The notes under the pieces were generated by a model that was not told the DNA's origin, ran no database searches, and saw only the letters and a program-made list of their open reading frames with translations. A stretch of 11,077 nucleotides of DNA from a virus: UHGV virus genome UHGV-0128589, one strand, 5' to 3'. Below, piece by piece: positions 1 through 11,077 of the stretch. Within the stretch, counting starts at the first letter, position 1; the number at the start of each line of letters is the position of its first letter. A program made the translations under genes and the position numbers.

Positions 1-20
1 ACAGCAGAAAATTTGCGAGC

Positions 21-239
21 ATGATCGCAATTATTTCACTGCCAGGGATATCAATAGCTTCCAGTAAATCGCTACAGCAGGCAATTGCCAATATAAAAAT
101 CTGGCACAAGGGTGAACAGCGCGCGCCGCATAAGCCATTGTTATTGCTATACGTATTAGCGGGATACCTGAATGGACATCCGCGCCTTTTCGATTATTGT
201 AGTGGAACAGTCTACGAGGATGCAGTTCGAAGTGAGTAA
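21..239 (+). CDS. hypothetical protein, flanking DNA outside the satellite (possibly a gene fragment)
   Basis: 72-codon ORF from the ORF track; no motif I can name; lies left of the att-like repeat at 684-722. Confidence 0.3.
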   Translation: MIAIISLPGISIASSKSLQQAIANIKIWHKGEQRAPHKPLLLLYVLAGYLNGHPRLFDYCSGTVYEDAVRSE

Positions 240-262
240 GTAAAGGTTGCTGGAAACGATCA

Positions 263-481
263 ATGCCGCCATACAATGATTTTTTAGGATCAACAATGAG
301 TAATAAAAACTACGAAAGTCACCGCAAAGCGATTGTTAGTAAAGGTATACCACCCGCTCTATTAAATAGGCTCACCAATTCGGATGTTCAGGTGATCAAT
401 ACCTTCTTAACACGAGTGAGCAAACTGGAACTATCTCAACAAGAGAAAGACTGGATCATAAAAATCATCTCTATGGTTTAG
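263..481 (+). CDS. hypothetical protein, flanking DNA (start uncertain; internal ATG at 296 also possible)
   Basis: 72-codon ORF directly after the previous ORF on the same strand; no recognisable motif; the pair may be fragments of one disrupted gene. Confidence 0.3.
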   Translation: MPPYNDFLGSTMSNKNYESHRKAIVSKGIPPALLNRLTNSDVQVINTFLTRVSKLELSQQEKDWIIKIISMV

Positions 482-683
482 ACAATTTCAGCCTTGTAGC
501 CTTTCAAGGGTTTTGTGTGGGTACAAACATTATCGAATCGGGGTATAGCCGCAGCTGTAGCTGTATCCACATCAGTAAGTTGATGTAGGTTGACTTAGGT
601 TGAGCGAAAAATAGCGAAAAGCCTTGTGTGGCGCGGATTTCAGTCATAAAAAAACGTCCGTTGATGTCTATTGATGTTCCGAT

Positions 684-722
684 GGTGCGAAGGTGCGAAG
701 GTGCGAAGGCCGGACTCAAACC
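684..722. repeat. att-like degenerate copy of the tRNA-Leu 3-prime end (left boundary of the element), preceded by GGTGCGAA x3 tandem repeat
   Basis: ggtgcgaaggccggactcaaacc (700-722) matches tggtgccgaaggccggactcgaacc at 11024-11048 with one indel and one substitution; three tandem GGTGCGAA units at 684-707. Confidence 0.6.
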
Positions 723-772
723 ATCATGTAACACCATAAAATACAAGCAAAAAACATAAACTACACTTTAAA

Positions 773-1063: not shown

Positions 1064-3397
1064 TTATTTCGCTGTGGGGTCATCGCACTTCGGCAGCCAG
1101 TCGGCGTTGCTTTCTTCCCTGAGCGCAAGATTGGTCTGTATGCCCTGATTTTTACGGCGCTTCTCATAACTCAGTCCGTACTCTTTTAGCATCGCTGGCA
1201 GTCCCTTGCCGAACATGGTGAGGCTAAGAGTATTCTTGTAGCCGTGGGCCTCCATGTACGCCAGGTAGGCATGATAGAGGTAAAGTCGCGGCTGACGCGG
1301 AATGATGTTGGCATTGCCAATATACATACCCTCAGGTTCCGGCAGCGCCTCCAGATAGCCACAAAAATCAAATGTCGGGTCGGCGTCGCGCTTGATGCTG
1401 AGCGCCTCGTCGGAATTCTGCTGTGACTGGAGCAGTGTGCGCGCGGTCATCGGGTCGCTGAACTTCTGCATTAGCTGGCGCACAATGACGGCCAGCTCGC
1501 GGGCGATTTTGTTCTTAAGCTGCGGGTCGCGTTCTTCCGGGGCAATCTGCTCCGGGAAATGCAGAATCACCCGGCGACGGGAAACACCGCCGCTGCGGTC
1601 AGTAAAGCGCATCGGGTTATTGTTCACGGCCAGAATCACCGCCGGAATATGGGTGGAGTACGCATCCTTGTATTTCGGGTCTACCGATACCGCATCCCCG
1701 CCGGTGATGGCCTTGAGTCCGGCTCCGTCACCACTCCATTTTTCCTGGTCAGGCAGTCGAATCAGCGAGAAGCCAATCAGTGCGGCACGTTCACGCGGTG
1801 ATTCCAGCGTTTCGATGGTGGCCGACGTGGCGTTATCTTCCCCGGCAAGCATGGTCGCAATTTCGGCCAGAATACTTTTCCCGCTGCCGCCGGGCCCGGT
1901 CACCTCAAGAAAGAGCTGCCAGTCGTAGCGGTTCGCCAGCACCATAAACAGCGCGGCCAGAATCACATCGCGTTTTTCTGGTCTGCCACCGGCAGCACGG
2001 TCGAGCCAGCGCCAGAAATCCGGTGCATGGGTTTCCAGCGTTTCGCCCTCCACCGGCGGGGTAAAATCGACATCACAGAGTGTGCGCAGCCAGTGCGATT
2101 TATCATGCGGGTTGAATGTGCCGGTGGCGGTATCAAGTACGCCGTTGCGAAAGCCAATCAGACGCCGTGCCGGGGCGTCCTGCTGCGGAATAATCAGTTT
2201 CAGGGTCTCCACCACCGAGGCAATTTTTCCCGACGAGAACGGTGCGCGCAGACGCTGGAACAACCCGGCCACGTCGCGGGCAAAGTCCGACGGCGGAATG
2301 ATTTTCCATATCCCGGCCTCATAACGGGACAGGAGCTGGCCGTTCGCGTCCACGGCCAGCGCTTCGCCGTAATGCTCATGCACCCGCATCGCTTTTTCAC
2401 TGGTGCTCATGGCGGTAAATTCCGCCTCGCTCATGGTAGTGAAAGGACTGTCAGCCGGTGGCCGGATGGCCTCATAAATGGCTTTCCGCATCGCCTCCTC
2501 ACCTTTCTGTTCAAATGCGTCATTCCAGTCACCGAACACCGGCGGCAGGGCAACAATACCGTCACAGGCTTCTGCGGCCGCTGCGGCTTTACTCTGGCCG
2601 TCGCCGTTCAGGTCGCGGTCGGCGGCGAGGACAATCTGACAGGCCGGGTATTTCTGACGGGCAAGGCTCGCCAGAGAAAGGAGGTTTGCGGACGACAGTG
2701 CCACCATGACGGTTTCCCCGGTCAGGTGATGTACGGTGAGCGCGGTCGCATAGCCCTCCGCTATCCACAGCCGTTTTCCCGCCTGTTTTTTCCCTTCGAT
2801 GGTGTGGCACGCTCCTTTTACCGCCCCGCCTTTCAGGGTGCGTTTGAGACCCTCAGAATTGATGAGCTGAAGGTTAACCAGTGCATCGGTATTGTCATAC
2901 AGCGGGACAACCACATCACCGGCGCGGAACGTCACGCCGCCGGTTTTATGCACGGCCGTGAGCGTCAGACATTCCAGAGCGGGGAAGCCCTTGCGGGTCA
3001 GGTAGGCGTTGCCGCTGGCCGTGCGGGTTTTCTCCATCAGTCTGACGGCCAGCGTGGCCGCCGCTTTACGGTCTGCTTCGGTTTCAGCCTCTGCGGCCAC
3101 AATCACCTCCGGGGCAACCGGCGACAGGTTACCGGCGACGACATTCACCTTTTGGGCTGCCTCTGACGGATTAACGCCGAACACCTTTTCAACCAGTTTC
3201 AGGCCATCCCCTGCGCCGCACTGGTTACAGAACCACGTCCCGCGACCCTCTTTATCGTCAAACCGGAAACGGTCAGAACCGCCGCACACCGGGCAGGGCT
3301 GATGCCGGTTTTTAATGACCTTCACCCCCAGCGCCGGGAGAATGCGCGGCCAGTGGCCGCACGCCTGTTTTACGGTTTCCGTTACGTTCATTTTCAT
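1064..3397 (-). CDS. alpha: P4-type alpha protein: DNA primase / SF3 replicative helicase
   Basis: 777-aa ORF; N-terminal CxxC...CxxC zinc-binding primase region (CPVCGGSDRF...FCNQCGAG); Walker A P-loop GPGGSGKS in the C-terminal half; RBS GGGAGAA upstream; flanked by iterons, as for P4 alpha. Confidence 0.95.
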   Translation of the reverse strand: MKMNVTETVKQACGHWPRILPALGVKVIKNRHQPCPVCGGSDRFRFDDKEGRGTWFCNQCGAGDGLKLVEKVFGVNPSEAAQKVNVVAGNLSPVAPEVIVAAEAETEADRKAAATLAVRLMEKTRTASGNAYLTRKGFPALECLTLTAVHKTGGVTFRAGDVVVPLYDNTDALVNLQLINSEGLKRTLKGGAVKGACHTIEGKKQAGKRLWIAEGYATALTVHHLTGETVMVALSSANLLSLASLARQKYPACQIVLAADRDLNGDGQSKAAAAAEACDGIVALPPVFGDWNDAFEQKGEEAMRKAIYEAIRPPADSPFTTMSEAEFTAMSTSEKAMRVHEHYGEALAVDANGQLLSRYEAGIWKIIPPSDFARDVAGLFQRLRAPFSSGKIASVVETLKLIIPQQDAPARRLIGFRNGVLDTATGTFNPHDKSHWLRTLCDVDFTPPVEGETLETHAPDFWRWLDRAAGGRPEKRDVILAALFMVLANRYDWQLFLEVTGPGGSGKSILAEIATMLAGEDNATSATIETLESPRERAALIGFSLIRLPDQEKWSGDGAGLKAITGGDAVSVDPKYKDAYSTHIPAVILAVNNNPMRFTDRSGGVSRRRVILHFPEQIAPEERDPQLKNKIARELAVIVRQLMQKFSDPMTARTLLQSQQNSDEALSIKRDADPTFDFCGYLEALPEPEGMYIGNANIIPRQPRLYLYHAYLAYMEAHGYKNTLSLTMFGKGLPAMLKEYGLSYEKRRKNQGIQTNLALREESNADWLPKCDDPTAK

Positions 3398-3411
3398 TGT
3401 TTTTTTCTCCC

Positions 3412-3732
3412 TCAGTGCACAACAGGCGATTGCATGTGACGGGCGCAGAGTTCATCCATCACCGCAAGCCCGAGAAAGGACAGTGACGGCGCGGCTTTCA
3501 GTGGCCCGCCTTCCATTAAATCTTCCAGCAGGGCACAGGCAATCAGGCGGCCTTTTTCCTCGCCGTACTGGCGCAGATAGAAGCCTTCCAGTCCGGCAGC
3601 AATGGCGCTTTCCAGTGCATCAAGGGTGAGATGTGGATAGCGGTGCTGACGTTCGCACAGGGTCAGCCAGGCACAGGCCACGGCGCGACGATACAGCGCA
3701 GCACGCAGAACAGGGGATAATGAATTTTTCAT
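3412..3732 (-). CDS. small protein directly upstream of alpha; position matches P4 cnr (copy-number regulator), identity not established
   Basis: 106-aa ORF; its stop is 14 nt before the alpha start; its start overlaps the stop of the upstream ORF (ATGA), so likely co-transcribed. Confidence 0.65.
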
Positions 3733-3956
3733 ACATTGCCCTCCCCGGTCAGCCAGCGCTGATTGCAGCGTTCGACCACGCCGTCGAGCTGGGCGGTCAT
3801 GAGGTAAATCACGGAGGTAAGCTGTAACTGCTGCGCCGGGTCACGACGAATAGTGGCGCAGTCCTGCACCTGCATCAGTTCGCCGACGAGCTGGCCGACA
3901 TTGCGCATATGCTCCAGGCATTCGAGGTCACGGGCGGTAATGGTGGTGTGTCTCAT
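3729..3956 (-). CDS. hypothetical small protein of the left (replication) operon
   Basis: 75-aa ORF overlapping both neighbours by 4 nt (translational coupling); no recognisable motif. Confidence 0.55.
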
Positions 3957-4147
3957 GCGCGCACCTCCGCAACCGGCAGACGGCCAGCGAACGAGAGGAC
4001 GTAATCACGAACGAGGGAAAGGCGTGCGGCGTGTTCATCACCGGCAACGGTGCGGAGCATACAAATACGGGGTTTACGGTCTGCGCGACGTACAGCGGCA
4101 AACACAAAAACAAACTGCGGGTGTGACGGGGTGAGGGTCGTAGCCAT
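3953..4147 (-). CDS. Icd-like small protein (cell-division-inhibitor / P4 kil-position gene); the longer 183-aa ORF in the track is probably an artefact
   Basis: Internal start [16 protein letters not shown]... at 4147 with SD GGAGGT about 8 nt upstream (alternative ATG at 4171); N-terminus resembles proteins annotated Icd-like in P4-like prophages (from memory, unverified). Confidence 0.55.
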
Positions 4148-4350
4148 AGTGGCAACCTCCAATGTTTGCATGTGACTGCTACCACTGGAAACGCCAATTT
4201 CACTGGTGGTAGCCCAGACGGGGTTGGCGTAACCGGCAACATTGGAAACCGGCGCTTCGTGAGAAGCCCCCGCCTGAGCCACCATTACTCGAAGGATCCA
4301 AAGGTAGATAAATCTCTGGATCAAAAATGGATGCACTGAGGCATAGACAC

Positions 4351-4372
4351 AAAAAAAGACGCAAGGCGCGTC
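4351..4372 (-). terminator. candidate intrinsic terminator/attenuator inside the leader between the AlpA-like gene and the Icd-like gene
   Basis: On the minus strand GACGC-GCCTT-GCGTC (5-bp GC stem) immediately followed by TTTTTTT. Confidence 0.4.
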
Positions 4373-4500
4373 CGGTGTCGCCAATGTTGTAAACGGGACG
4401 CCAATCCCGGCTGCCGATTTTGCGACAGCGGGAAAACTATACCTGGAAACGGCAAACGGAAGCAAGCCAGAAAAAGGGACTTTTTGCTGAGCGGCCATCA

Positions 4501-4767
4501 TCATGCGTCATAACTCCGGTTGCGTTCGGCAATGCGATCCGCCATCCATGCGGTGATTTCAGACTGTGCCCACGCCACGTTTTTTCCGCCGAGGGAGATT
4601 TGTTTCGGGAATGCCTCGCGGCTGATGAGGTCGTAAATGGTCGACCGGGACAGGCCGCATAAATGCATCACTTCGGGCAGACGGATAAAGCGCTCCTGAA
4701 CGACATCAGAGACCGGCATCAGCGGGGCGGCAGGGGCAGAAGACGGGGAAGAAAAAGCGGTGTGCAT
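4501..4767 (-). CDS. AlpA/Vis-family helix-turn-helix regulator / excisionase
   Basis: 88-aa ORF with typical AlpA core [46 protein letters not shown]; SD GAGGT 7 nt upstream of the ATG at 4767; internal start at MPVSD also possible. Confidence 0.85.
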
Positions 4768-7034: not shown

Positions 7035-7065
7035 GCGGGCAGGCGGGGCGGGGAGAGCATTGCGC
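7035..7065. other. candidate cos / packaging region
   Basis: GC-rich tract gggcaggcggggcggggagagcat loosely resembling the P2/P4 cohesive-end sequence as recalled; located between psu and the accessory genes, where cos lies in a permuted P4 prophage. Not an exact match. Confidence 0.25.
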
Positions 7066-7122
7066 GCAAGATGCCGCGCATTAAAAAGACGTTCTAAAAC
7101 GAAAAAAGCTATAGCGATGAAA

Positions 7123-7143
7123 CATATCTATAAGATAGATATG
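7123..7143. promoter_or_regulatory. perfect 9-bp inverted repeat (candidate operator) upstream of the accessory operon
   Basis: catatctat-aag-atagatatg, about 95 bp upstream of the ATG at 7239. Confidence 0.35.
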
Positions 7144-7238
7144 GCATTACTCCTAAATATGTGTAAAAAATAGTGATACCTATGCAACCCTTTTCTCTGC
7201 TCTTTCAAGGACAAATCTCAGGTTAAGAGAGTCATCAG

Positions 7239-7619
7239 ATGCTAAATCATATTTATGGAATTGTTGGTATAGTTGGCACATTAGTTACGATTGTGACGAG
7301 TTACATCAGAAATCAAGAATTGTCGCAATGGTTCCTTGTATGTTCTGGTTGGCTTACGGCTCTATTGATAGGTTGGTTCACGCATAGAACTATTAAAATT
7401 CTAAGCAAAGATCACAAAGAAACCATCATTAGTAATGATGGTATAAAGCAAACGCTTATAGAGCGGAATGAAACATTAACCACACAACTTACGCATGCAT
7501 TAGAACAGAAAGAAAAAATGGAAGGAATCGCGGCTTATTTAGCAACTCAGAACCCACAAATTAACGCCATGCCTAGAGCCATCGCGCGACAAGAAAATAC
7601 TGAGCTAGGAGGTAATTAA
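7239..7619 (+). CDS. small two-transmembrane-helix protein with C-terminal charged/helical tail; first gene of the accessory operon
   Basis: 126-aa ORF; hydrophobic segments IYGIVGIVGTLVTIVTSYI and WFLVCSGWLTALLIGWF; RBS AAGAGAG 7 nt upstream; AT-rich codon usage unlike the core genes. Confidence 0.7.
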   Translation: MLNHIYGIVGIVGTLVTIVTSYIRNQELSQWFLVCSGWLTALLIGWFTHRTIKILSKDHKETIISNDGIKQTLIERNETLTTQLTHALEQKEKMEGIAAYLATQNPQINAMPRAIARQENTELGGN

Positions 7620-7620
7620 G

Positions 7621-8685
7621 ATGAAAGTAAATTTTGATAGTTATTCATATTATCCTGCATTAAGAACTCGTGCAGCTGAAATACTTGGCTTGAGTAAGCT
7701 TGCTCATGATAAGAAAGAGAAAGTACTTCCACTTATAACCTTAGGGAAATGGCCCCGCTCAGATGAAATTCAAGTTTCTCTTGATAAGAGTCTGGAAGCA
7801 ATGAATAACTTGCCTTTTATTCTGGACGTTACTCAAGAGAACAAGCATCATTGCGCATCAAGCTTTGATCTTCTATCTTCCGAAAATAATTTTTCAAACT
7901 GGATAGCTTTCTGCTCTAAGAATGAGAATATTATCCCCGTAGTTCAAATGCCTGAATCTGCAAGATTAAGGGATATAGTACAGCAAGCAAGAATACTTGA
8001 AGAAAATAAAGGTTCCATTGCATTTCGCATAAAGAACCTTAACACTGATATAAATAAAACAATAGCATCACTTGTGTCTCTCGACTCCCCTGAAAATGCG
8101 GTTATATTCATAGACTTGGGTTACATTCGCGGACATGTCTCAGCAATGACGTCTGCTGCCATAAGTGCAATCAACCAAATAAGGACAGAAATTCCTGAAG
8201 CTATAATTAGTGTACTGTCGACTAGTTTCCCAAGTTCGGTCGCAAACTTTGCAGGAGAAAATGGTCAATCTGGTTATATTGACATTATGGAAAGAGAATT
8301 CCACCAAACTATTGGTGGTCGAGGAGTATCTATATACGGAGATCATAGTTCAATTCACTCTGTTGTATATGATGATGTTGGTGGACGTTATGTCCCAAGA
8401 ATTGACATTGCATTAGATGATGCTTGGTTTTTTGAGAGAAGACCAGGACTTGATAGTAAAGGCTATATAGAAGCAGCAAGAGCGATTCTTAAAAGATACC
8501 CTAATTATCTTGAAGAAGAATCCTGGGGTGCGCTGATGATTAAAAACGCTGCATCAGGCGATATTGCTGGTATGGGGAGTCCCGCTAAATGGATTTCTGT
8601 GCGCGTGAACCTTCATATAACAAAGCAAATTGAGCTATCAGAAGCACTTAAAACAGATTACGATCCTGAAGAGGATTTCTTCTAA
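7621..8685 (+). CDS. uncharacterised 354-aa protein, second gene of the accessory operon; function unknown
   Basis: Long ORF starting 1 nt after the upstream stop; strong SD AGGAGGT 9 nt upstream, embedded in the last codons of the upstream gene; no Walker or other catalytic motif recognisable by eye. Confidence 0.8.
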   Translation: MKVNFDSYSYYPALRTRAAEILGLSKLAHDKKEKVLPLITLGKWPRSDEIQVSLDKSLEAMNNLPFILDVTQENKHHCASSFDLLSSENNFSNWIAFCSKNENIIPVVQMPESARLRDIVQQARILEENKGSIAFRIKNLNTDINKTIASLVSLDSPENAVIFIDLGYIRGHVSAMTSAAISAINQIRTEIPEAIISVLSTSFPSSVANFAGENGQSGYIDIMEREFHQTIGGRGVSIYGDHSSIHSVVYDDVGGRYVPRIDIALDDAWFFERRPGLDSKGYIEAARAILKRYPNYLEEESWGALMIKNAASGDIAGMGSPAKWISVRVNLHITKQIELSEALKTDYDPEEDFF

Positions 8686-8710
8686 AAAATAAGGGAGGGC
8701 AGCCTCCCTT
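8683..8710 (-). terminator. terminator hairpin between the convergent accessory genes (strongest for the minus-strand gene)
   Basis: aagggagg-gcag-cctccctt perfect 8-bp stem; on the minus strand it is followed by ATTTTTT. Confidence 0.55.
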
Positions 8711-9503
8711 ATCGCACGACCCTTTTCAAAACTTTGATGGGAGTGATACTCCCAACCTCTCCGTGCTTTCTCATAAACCCCTCAATATCAACTGTATAAA
8801 AATCATCTAATTTTTCATCAGTATTATCTTCGAAATCTTTAAAGTGATTATGTTCCCGTCTCTTTTTTGATTTACTTAACAAAGTCAAATCGTTAGCATT
8901 CGATAATTCGCTACCTGCTAATTTCTTCAAGTAATCATCAGAAGTTTCTTTATAGCGTTGCTTAATTGCTTTAAGCGCAAAGTCTCTAATTCTAGATAGG
9001 GGAATTTGTTCAGCTATACGCTCTAAAGCCTCACGACCAGACTCGAGTAAAAACTTTTTCCCATTTTCAACAAGAAGTAATTGCAACTCTTTTTTCAGTA
9101 AGAAATTAATATAAACCTTCTTATTACCGAGTACTGCCGTACGCCCACGCTGAACTATTTTAAAACGAATGCCTTTACTAGTATTTATGTATTCAATAAC
9201 ACCAACATCTGATGTTACTTTCTTCGCAATTTCATAAGTAAATTTTGGGGCACAAACAACAGTTACCTTTTCAAAACGAGATGTAAAGGTTTCTAACTGA
9301 CCATCTAATCTTTTAAGAGAGTCAAAATCACTTTTTATTTCAAAAGCTTGCAAGTGTCCATTCGCAACGGCCAGATCAGCGCGGCGACTCCAATTCGCTA
9401 CAACCATTTCATTAATAATGGTTGCGTTCTCTAACAAGCCTTTTTTAAAAAGCCAGTCAATAAATGCGACTTTTACATCTTGCTCTCTTAATAAAAATGA
9501 CAT
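8709..9503 (-). CDS. stand-alone protein with N-terminal PD-(D/E)xK nuclease-like domain and charged helical C-terminal region
   Basis: 264-aa ORF; motif order E7 ... RADLAV (D42) ... AFEIKSD (E54-x-K56) fits the PD-(D/E)xK core; own extended -10 promoter and own terminator; very AT-rich. Confidence 0.8.
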   Translation of the reverse strand: MSFLLREQDVKVAFIDWLFKKGLLENATIINEMVVANWSRRADLAVANGHLQAFEIKSDFDSLKRLDGQLETFTSRFEKVTVVCAPKFTYEIAKKVTSDVGVIEYINTSKGIRFKIVQRGRTAVLGNKKVYINFLLKKELQLLLVENGKKFLLESGREALERIAEQIPLSRIRDFALKAIKQRYKETSDDYLKKLAGSELSNANDLTLLSKSKKRREHNHFKDFEDNTDEKLDDFYTVDIEGFMRKHGEVGSITPIKVLKRVVR

Positions 9504-9529
9504 AATCTCGTCACACCCTTAAAAATTGT

Positions 9530-9545
9530 TAAAAATTATAGCAAA
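9530..9545 (-). promoter_or_regulatory. candidate extended -10 promoter (TGcTATAAT) for the 8709..9503 gene
   Basis: Minus strand reads ttgcTATAATtttt in the 91-bp gap between the int stop and the downstream gene start. Confidence 0.4.
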
Positions 9546-9594
9546 AAAAACAAACTCCATCCATTATTCCTCTTGAGTTTTTTTTGATAAAGAG

Positions 9595-10872
9595 CTAGAT
9601 GTCATTTATTTTACTCCCACAGTCATACGGTGATATATACTCCTTATTATTTAGATCTAAATAATCAGCCCACCACTGAACCATTTTGCGCCTTTCATCT
9701 AAATGTTCTGATGTATGAATATAAGCAGCCCTAACGCCATTACGTTCTGTGTGACTCAACTGACGTTCTATAGCGTCATCGCTCCATAATCCTGACTCAC
9801 CCAGCGCACCACGGGCCATCGTTCTAAATCCATGCCCGCAAACTTCAGTTTTCGTGTCATAGCCCATCGCACGCAATGCGCTGTTTACCGTGTTTTCACT
9901 CATAACCTTAGTTGCGTCATGATCCCCCGGGAACAGCAGCTCTTTATCACCACTAATTTGCTTGAGCTGCTCTAATAAAACCATCGCCTGCCGACTGAGA
10001 GGAACAATATGCTCCTCTTTCATTTTCATGCCACGATACGAGTAACGCACGCCCTTAATTTCTTCTCGCTTTGCAGGTATACGCCAAAGAGATTTATCGA
10101 AGTCGAACTCATCCCAACGCGCGAAACGCAACTCACTGGAACGCACAAAAGTTAGTAAGGAAAGCTCAACCGCGATCCGTGTCATTACACGGCCACGATA
10201 TGCAGCAAGACGTGCAAGAAACTCAGGGAACCGGCTAGAGGGTAAAGCGGGGTAATGTCGCGCTTTGGTTGTCGATAGCGCACCGGCCATATCACTGGCT
10301 GGATTTGAGTCGATGTAATCGTTCTGTACTGCATAACGCATGATAGCCGTGACACGCTGCTGAAGACGCTGTGCGACGTCATGCTTACCACTTGCATCAA
10401 CTTTTTTAATCGGGGCTAACAGGTGGCTAGTCTTGAGCTGGCGAATGTCGGACGAACCAATATGAGGGAAGATATAAAGCTCAAGATAGCGAAGAACGCG
10501 CGATCGATGGTCTTCACTCCAGCGCTTGTTACTGGCGTGCCATTCACGAGCAATGGTTTCGAAAGTATATGCCCCCGAATTCTCGGCCTGAGCTTCTTTC
10601 TGTTCGGCTTTTGGGTCAATGCCCTGCACTAGCAGCTTTTTAGCTTCATCGCGCTTTGCTCTTGCCTGAGCAAGCGTCACAGTAGGCCAAACACCAAAAG
10701 CGAGGCGATCCTCTTTTTTGTCTGAGGGGCGTCTGTATTTCATGCGCCAGTATTTAGAACCCTTAGCCGAAATCTCGAGATACAAACCGCCGCCATCGGC
10801 CATTTTGTAGGTTTTTTCTTTTGGCTTTGCGGTCTCGACCTGTCTGGCGTTGAGCTTCATTTGGGGGCACAT
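9595..10872 (-). CDS. int: P4-type tyrosine integrase / site-specific recombinase
   Basis: 425-aa ORF; N-terminus with the ...KTYKMADGGGLYLEI... motif typical of P4-family integrases; C-terminal HGFRTMARG and downstream tyrosine (VRAAYIH); about 150 bp from the tRNA 3-prime end. Start may be the ATG at 10860 (MKLNARQ). Confidence 0.95.
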   Translation of the reverse strand: MCPQMKLNARQVETAKPKEKTYKMADGGGLYLEISAKGSKYWRMKYRRPSDKKEDRLAFGVWPTVTLAQARAKRDEAKKLLVQGIDPKAEQKEAQAENSGAYTFETIAREWHASNKRWSEDHRSRVLRYLELYIFPHIGSSDIRQLKTSHLLAPIKKVDASGKHDVAQRLQQRVTAIMRYAVQNDYIDSNPASDMAGALSTTKARHYPALPSSRFPEFLARLAAYRGRVMTRIAVELSLLTFVRSSELRFARWDEFDFDKSLWRIPAKREEIKGVRYSYRGMKMKEEHIVPLSRQAMVLLEQLKQISGDKELLFPGDHDATKVMSENTVNSALRAMGYDTKTEVCGHGFRTMARGALGESGLWSDDAIERQLSHTERNGVRAAYIHTSEHLDERRKMVQWWADYLDLNNKEYISPYDCGSKINDI

Positions 10873-10910
10873 TTCTAATCGAAGTTAAGATGCCCCCAAT
10901 TATGCCCCCA
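10862..10910. repeat. TGCCCCCA repeats (two direct, one inverted) at the int start, candidate integrase-binding or autoregulatory sites
   Basis: tgggggca at 10862-10869 (inverted, overlapping the first int codons); tgccccca at 10891-10898 and 10903-10910. Confidence 0.4.
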
Positions 10911-11023
10911 ATGACATCAGGATTTCAACGGACAACCTCGGACGACTCAGGACGTAAAAATCGCTGCAAGCATTGATTTTTAAGGGATAATTGGACTTTC
11001 TCGGATGGTCTTGGAAGTACTTA

Positions 11024-11077
11024 TGGTGCCGAAGGCCGGACTCGAACCGGCACGTATTTCTACGGTTGATTTTGAAT
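11024..11077 (-). tRNA. leuX: tRNA-Leu(CAA), leuX-type, 3-prime portion only (truncated by the window edge)
   Basis: Reverse complement reads ATTCAAAATCAACCGTAGAAATACGTGCCGGTTCGAGTCCGGCCTTCGGCACCA: anticodon loop with CAA, variable arm, T-arm GGTTCGAGTCC and acceptor end with CCA; matches E. coli leuX as I recall it. Confidence 0.85.

Follow-up and report, generated by a model that had tools for sequence, protein, structure and literature searches.

A three-piece scar of the Escherichia coli leuX integration hotspot lies to the left of a P4-like satellite

The stretch of DNA that we analyzed (UHGV virus genome UHGV-0128589, 11,077 nt, hereafter the window) carries a P4-type satellite integrated at tRNA-Leu (leuX). 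Its integrase, encoded on the minus strand at 9595-10872, is 96% identical to P4 Int, and the element also has a 777-aa primase (1064-3397), a C4 antisense RNA/isrK (4202-4442), c4-a1b1 elements, and the cargo genes gop, beta, and cII within 7239-9503 (PADLOC E-values of 1e-73 to 1e-188). The att core is a direct repeat, as the original prediction had it, with 704-730 identical to 11030-11056. On the right, the copy forms the 3' end of a tRNA-Leu on the minus strand; this gene extends from 11024 off the edge of the window, which is why ARAGORN reports no tRNA. The flank to the left of the core indeed contains the two consecutive 72-aa ATG open reading frames (ORFs) described from the sequence, ORF1 at 21-239 and ORF2 at 263-481, both on the plus strand. 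It is also more AT-rich than the satellite core, with a GC content of 0.40-0.44 over 1-750 versus 0.57-0.62 over the primase/regulatory core (1200-4700). Since the satellite cargo region (7050-9750) is still more AT-rich than the flank (GC 0.33-0.40), low GC alone is no marker of non-satellite DNA. Neither ORF has a match in Pfam, PADLOC finds nothing for the flank ORFs, and no Rfam family maps within 1-760; weak Rfam matches to miRNAs at 913-1025 were set aside as satellite ori/crr repeats.

When aligned to other genomes (comparison loci are designated by L numbers), window 1-721 shows two internal homology breaks and is a mosaic of three blocks, A, B, and C, with the following features:

1-197: block A, a restriction-gene stub with its promoter region
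1-53, unstranded: intergenic spacer separating the restriction-endonuclease stub from a divergent HNH endonuclease gene that lies left of the window
21-239, plus strand: ORF1 (72 aa), a chimera of an upstream in-frame ATG, the endonuclease stub, and the tail of a decayed 64-aa gene up to a new TAA
54-197, plus strand: endonuclease stub of ~48 codons, 5' part of a phosphorothioated-DNA-binding type IV HNH restriction endonuclease
198-491: block B, older-island tip that retains a small intact gene
198-295, plus strand: first part of block B, decayed 3' end of a 64-aa signal-peptide gene
296-481, plus strand: second part of block B, intact 61-aa gene (ORF2 from its real start, ATG at 296)
482-491, unstranded: end of block B
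492-721: block C, attachment arm without integrase
492-683, minus strand: arm of block C, a former leuX-proximal (integrase-side) island arm from which the integrase gene is absent
577-583, 587-593, and 597-603, plus strand: three A(A/G)GTTGA repeats in 10-bp phase, putative arm-type sites
603-620, plus strand: pair of AGCGAAAA motifs 10 bp apart, partly conserved in homologous arms
648-668, minus strand: destroyed copy of the leuX intrinsic terminator (hairpin and U7)
684-707, unstranded: three copies of GGTGCGAA, an 8-bp repeat made from the pseudo-tRNA acceptor end
700-721, unstranded: pseudo 3' end of tRNA-Leu, core of the satellite attR and last DNA common to genomes with other occupants
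722-1063, unstranded: satellite distal arm, outside the flank, with P4-type TGCCCCC repeats at 774-780 and 786-792 and ori/crr repeats

Block A is evidently, from its alignment to intact orthologs, the promoter-proximal stub of a phosphorothioated-DNA-dependent type IV HNH endonuclease cut at codon ~48. Residues 17-60 of ORF1 match positions 2-45 of the 284-position NF045808 profile with 60.6 bits, short of the 180 bits demanded of a full-length member (~284 positions). The enzymes of this family are presumably ScoMcrA-like, combining a sulfur-binding domain with HNH. Intact orthologs occupy the same position in strain C4 (L008, 290 aa) and in O157 (L007, 284 aa). DNA identity to the intact genes is 97-98.5% up to 197 and then stops, and the protein alignment with the 284-290-aa enzymes is confined to window 54-218. 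In the intact C4 protein the HNH_2 domain spans residues 182-236; the window lacks it, with no endonuclease homology beyond 197-218. Compared with the phosphorothioate-dependent type IV enzymes whose N terminus it matches, the window thus keeps only ~16% of the protein, without the HNH domain and without the start codon, since the native ATG at 54-56 has become ATA in the window and in the other genomes of the truncated type. PGAP calls the equivalent of 54-203 a pseudogene lacking its C terminus. The 3' part of the gene is kept in about 1,707 genomes, and K-12 shares only window 74-197 of the flank.

The assignment of 1-53 as intergenic rests on the annotated neighbors in L001-L005 and L008, and this sequence is almost identical in strains with an intact endonuclease gene. 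It contains an 18-bp palindrome, TTGCGAGCATGATCGCAA, at 13-30, which may be an operator because strains with the intact gene keep it as well. Further to the left (L001:4279-5917 and equivalents), the sialate O-acetylesterase gene nanS, intact in K-12, is C-terminally truncated in all carriers of the flank and is followed by a 29-aa ORF and then the HNH endonuclease gene, which places the far boundary of the hotspot inside a core gene. As a separate observation, E. coli MB07011 has a second, intact paralog of the phosphorothioated-DNA endonuclease (L028:20796-21674), 76% identical to the C4 enzyme and directly behind a leuX-island integrase, while the dead stub is found on the same chromosome at the far end of that island.

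The endonuclease stub gives way at about 197/198 to block B by an in-frame fusion. Citrobacter and Raoultella DNA is homologous from 211-213 onward, over both the tail of the 64-aa gene and ORF2. Intact 64-aa homologs, recognized by DNA and protein alignment, are present in Citrobacter (L017:2359-2553) and Raoultella (L019:5804-5998). In the window this gene has acquired a stop at 237-239 (CAA to TAA), which ends ORF1, and another in-frame stop, TAG, near 285, so that the aligned tail reads ...VYEDAVRSE*VKVAGNDQCRHTMIF*D where the intact homologs read ...LYENAVRSEQVKVAASAQCRHTMTFED.

ORF2, by contrast with this dead neighbor, is an intact gene of 61 codons. Its ATG at 296 is preceded, 6 nt upstream, by an AGGA ribosome-binding site, and its product, predicted to be a four-helix protein, matches PHROG 25874 from end to end (E = 6.5e-47, profile positions 1-61 of 61). 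PGAP assigns it to the WP_000066585.1 family, a 61-aa hypothetical protein. Homologs are stand-alone proteins of 60-64 aa with their own start codons in five genera. The gene is conserved across Enterobacteriaceae with a dN/dS of 0.04-0.16, indicating strong purifying selection; within E. coli, where all copies are at least 95% identical, selection is not measurable. Three long repetitive proteins that seemed to match ORF2 in the representative search proved to be summed weak matches to unrelated repeats and were discarded.

These assignments bear directly on the suggestion in the original prediction that the two ORFs could be fragments of one disrupted gene. They do adjoin each other, share a strand, and have the same length, as the halves of a gene broken by a frameshift or a stop might, yet ORF2 has no match to the intact endonucleases (best E = 23), its homologs stand alone with their own start codons, and the DNA that separates the ORFs belongs to the tail of a third gene, unrelated to either. 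We therefore reject a single broken gene. ORF1 is instead a chimera in which the endonuclease stub runs into the tail of the 64-aa gene, and ORF2 is a gene of its own. Nor do the ORFs correspond to a conserved chromosomal gene of the kind that would have spoken against an island remnant, because the genes they match belong to the variable cargo of the hotspot and not to the core.

Block B represents the 3' portion of a cassette of two genes, in which the gene for the 64-aa secreted protein is dead and that for the 61-aa helical protein intact. Unlike the Citrobacter and Raoultella members of PHROG 25874, the ORF2 of the window has no intact 64-aa partner gene before it. In other genera the block is found beside recombinases and other mobile genes. 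Citrobacter sp. NCU1, for instance, has two paralogous three-gene strings ~23 kb apart on the same contig (L017:1745-2738 and L018:5320-6177), each consisting of a short tyrosine recombinase (154-205 aa, Phage_integrase domain), the 64-aa signal-peptide protein, and a 61-aa ORF2 homolog. A contig labeled Chryseobacterium (L016, CACSKA010000001.1) also carries an ORF2 cassette of the enterobacterial type, which suggests mislabeling or contamination. It is conceivable, although we consider it quite doubtful, that the 61-aa and 64-aa genes form a two-gene module marking the distal tips of enterobacterial islands and that the E. coli copy is expressed in an island-related role; recombination directionality, immunity, and exclusion would be the candidate roles.

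What follows block B in other E. coli strains shows where it comes from. In CEC15, MB07011, Shigella flexneri, and L009, the sequence of 482-491 runs on into AbiEii/DUF6088/DUF4942 island DNA and not into block C. Block B is contiguous with AbiE and a type I restriction-modification system in CEC15, and in MB07011 it leads to AbiE/DUF4942/CbtA and onward to an intact integrase adjoining tRNA-Leu. Block B is, to judge from these alignments, the distal tip of CP4-like leuX islands, integrase-bearing or integrase-less, that persist in other E. coli.

Over 492-693, block C is 75-87% identical to the arms of L010 (4001-4205), L011, L012, L013, L007, and L028, the closest being those of L011 (87%) and L010/L012 (79%), and diverged copies of 496-693 occur in many genomes. 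Its homologs always adjoin an integrase gene or a remnant of one. In L010 and L013, the homolog is precisely the spacer of ~200 bp that separates a tyrosine integrase start codon from the real tRNA-Leu. In L012, an arm of this type lies with a decayed integrase in tandem behind a P4-like satellite, a layout that is that of the window plus one more surviving piece, the integrase pseudogene. The block breaks off a few bases short of the expected integrase start codon, and a tblastn search of window 1-760 with four integrases revealed no integrase remnant (best E = 1.7). The proposal that the flank is the remnant of another island in tandem at the same tRNA is thus borne out: comparison with leuX islands of other genomes recovers block B as an island tip and block C as an integrase-side arm, the latter homologous to integrase-tRNA spacers (L010 and L013) and paralleled by the tandem arrangement in L012.

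The short repeats that had been noticed at 580-700 are present, over 577-709, and are of two distinct origins. GTTGATGT occurs at 579-586 and 660-667, ATTGATGT at 670-677, GGTTGA at 588-593 and 598-603, and AGCGAAAA at 603-610 and 613-620. While the counts of these short motifs in the window are within chance (14 vs. 8.9 ± 3.1 expected, 7 vs. 5.7, and 2 vs. 0.74), we count them as real features because of their 10-bp phasing and their conservation in homologous arms that share only 70-87% identity. These arms have two to four copies of A(A/G)GTTGA, with both the phase and the distance from the core (about -125 to -95) conserved, against a background of ~0.5 (0.47) per 170 bp, and several non-P4 occupants have an inverted AGGTTGA copy at +7 to +13 of the core. 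The AGCGAAAA pair may belong to the promoter or leader of the former integrase.

We calibrated motif geometry on the feature table of the P4 record X51522, in which arm repeats of the TGCCCCC type lie at -168/-140/-128 and +58/+70. The satellite reproduces this arrangement exactly (774-792 and 10889-10915), including the +58/+70 offsets of its distal TGCCCCC copies, and its distal arm is only about 67% identical to that of P4. In P4 attP/attR, a 20-bp core equal to the tRNA-Leu 3' end is accompanied by tandem arm repeats ~100-140 bp away on the integrase side; the repeat in block C differs, being AGGTTGA in a 10-bp phase. Because P4 arm repeats occupy the equivalent position (-140/-128) and the geometry is conserved in homologs, we infer that the lost integrase used the AGGTTGA repeats as its arm-type sites; it would belong to a leuX integrase lineage different from that of P4. 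The integrases that go with arms of the block C type are 47-59% identical to P4 Int. The literature offered nothing directly usable on mapped arm sites of leuX or P4-family integrases.

The second pair of gttgatgt-like repeats (660-677) has another origin than those at 577-603, since it corresponds to the 3' half of the leuX terminator hairpin together with the spacer that leads to the tRNA end. An intact terminator with a 7-bp stem and U7 stands 17 nt beyond the CCA end in L010, L013, and L007, and the O157 copy (L007) shows compensatory stem changes (z = -4.85). The window copy has lost 2 bp and undergone a C-to-T change, and the hairpin is thereby destroyed (MFE -4.9, z = +0.89).

Between this dead terminator and the satellite lies the displaced tRNA end. 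Positions 700-721 repeat the tRNA end at 11024-11045, and the pseudo-tRNA end consists of three copies of GGTGCGAA followed by GGCCGGACTC. This 8-bp array, which the original prediction did not single out, is the sole report of Tandem Repeats Finder (8-bp unit, 3.8 copies, 680-709). Depending on the strain, there are one, two, three, or four copies of GGTGCGAA, and none in the real tRNA, which reads GGTGCCGAAGG. Across the window, L001-L005, L011, L012, L014, L025, and L026, the array behaves like a small VNTR. The annotated core of P4 is TGGTGCCGAAGGCCGGACTC. The displaced leuX 3' ends all read GGTGC-GAAGG and so lack one C of the GGTGCCGAAGG in the tRNA; this holds for the ends that we compared, window 700-710, L011:4179-4195, and L012:4195-4212, whose arms are otherwise 79-87% identical. 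Derivation of the missing C from attP was ruled out, because P4 attP has that C. As the C is present in both P4 attP and the tRNA, its loss arose after integration, either once, with shared ancestry through recombination, or by recurrent loss.

ORF2 and the array are the two grounds on which the region could still be functional, with ORF2 an expressed accessory gene and/or the array tuning attR recombination. The gene is intact with its ribosome-binding site, in a family under strong purifying selection, which counts against a wholly dead region, and array length does vary from one to four copies between strains. However, the upstream partner gene of ORF2 and any native promoter are gone, the near-identity of the E. 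coli copies leaves no selection to be measured in this species, and every array length gives the same ...GGTGCGAA|GGCCGGACTC context at the core. On balance, we find continued function unlikely. Only the core half-site (about 700-721) would now engage in any reaction, providing the bacterial side of the satellite attR.

The flank as a whole is widespread. At least 80% of window 1-760 is found by megablast in 776-777 of 5,426 complete E. coli genomes (~14%), and at the loci examined it always adjoins the HNH endonuclease gene, truncated nanS, nanM, nanC, and fimB. The first 721 bases are 100% identical in L001 and 99.9% identical in L005, both of which have other occupants, and homology ends at 721. 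Among the loci fetched, at least six distinct occupants start directly after ...GGCCGGACTC; right-hand occupants include a DUF932/IS2 island and a DUF262/DUF3696 system. A 2.8-kb contig labeled as an uncultured Lachnospiraceae MAG (L014, CAKRJY010000038.1) is 98.5% identical to window 121-721, from which we take it to be E. coli sequence, probably a binning error.

Such constancy could mean that the flank is native chromosomal DNA downstream of leuX and that its repeats belong to the regular 3' region of leuX. In ~777 genomes the 721 bp hardly vary, whatever the right-hand neighbor, and the GATTTCAG...A7-hairpin segment lies beside the tRNA even in integrase-less strains. Against this, B and C are missing at this position in K-12 and most genomes, the adjoining core gene nanS is truncated in every carrier, the homologs of C always accompany an integrase or its remnant, those of B lie near recombinases and mobile genes in other genera, and no outgroup or island-free genome with B and C at this position was seen among the loci inspected. 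Likewise, none of these loci is an unoccupied leuX with C-B-A directly on the tRNA, H33 and H34 both being occupied. A native origin is consequently very unlikely; the flank is what the E. coli leuX integration hotspot ordinarily leaves behind, here a scar in three pieces.

KpLE2 of K-12 is one of the leuX elements. Decayed or tandem islands at leuX share with the window the anchor tRNA, P4-family integrases, turnover of defense cargo, and the nanS-nanM-nanC-fimB far boundary (PMC12707154), and the window differs from them in keeping only two island tips (~520 bp) and no integrase. The tRNA gene anchors E. coli defense hotspot #37, the most occupied of 41 defense islands, with an arm-type integrase at one end (PMC12707154), so that debris of this kind is to be expected there.

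How the scar may have formed can be pictured as follows. Integration at a tRNA turns the DNA formerly downstream of the tRNA into the outer side of attR, and by that rule block C is the former 3' flank of leuX, which itself came from an earlier island; once displaced, its terminator and tRNA end were free to decay. The B|C junction would most simply be an internal deletion of a CP4-like island that began just behind the last gene and stopped a few bases short of the integrase start. Its interpretation as an IS1 scar was rejected, since L009 and L015 break at 491 but continue into island DNA and not into IS1. Blocks B and C may then be the two ends of one CP4-like island whose interior, from integrase to AbiE, was lost in a single deletion, for which the chances seem to us roughly balanced. 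No genome was found to connect block B, by way of island DNA, with an arm that matches block C at 95% identity or more, and the proximal arms of CEC15 and MB07011 are other variants (no match, or 83% over 94 bp). With the matching parent island not found, one island and two come out about even.

The two-island possibility, in which B and C come from different islands joined by an unrelated rearrangement, falls a little short of an even chance in our estimation. In its favor, the B-carrying islands of CEC15 and MB07011 do not have block C as their proximal arm, and the arms closest to C (L011 and L010/L012) belong to islands at whose distal ends no B was seen. The position of the break speaks for a single island, since on one side it directly follows the last tip gene and on the other it stops a few bases short of the integrase start, as one internal deletion would leave it. 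Whichever the number of islands, window 1-721 is very probably a non-functional scar of the leuX integration/defense hotspot that went through at least two deletion or illegitimate-recombination events and was later displaced ~10 kb from the tRNA by the satellite. The right-hand occupants would since have been exchanged mainly by homologous recombination through the fixed flank.

Nothing in the flank departs from known hotspot biology, such scars being already well known, and the practical value of the analysis is small. It sets the true left end of the P4-like satellite at about 721/722 and accounts for the two tidy 72-aa ORFs of ORF callers, which do not make up one gene. What keeps some interest is the constrained 61-aa gene. 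For E. coli, the analysis documents the layered scars that the busiest defense hotspot leaves. Here they comprise a type IV restriction gene that is dead, the tips of islands, a tRNA terminator that is displaced and decaying, and a pseudo-tRNA end prone to slippage, and they later serve as a fixed homology flank for occupant swaps.
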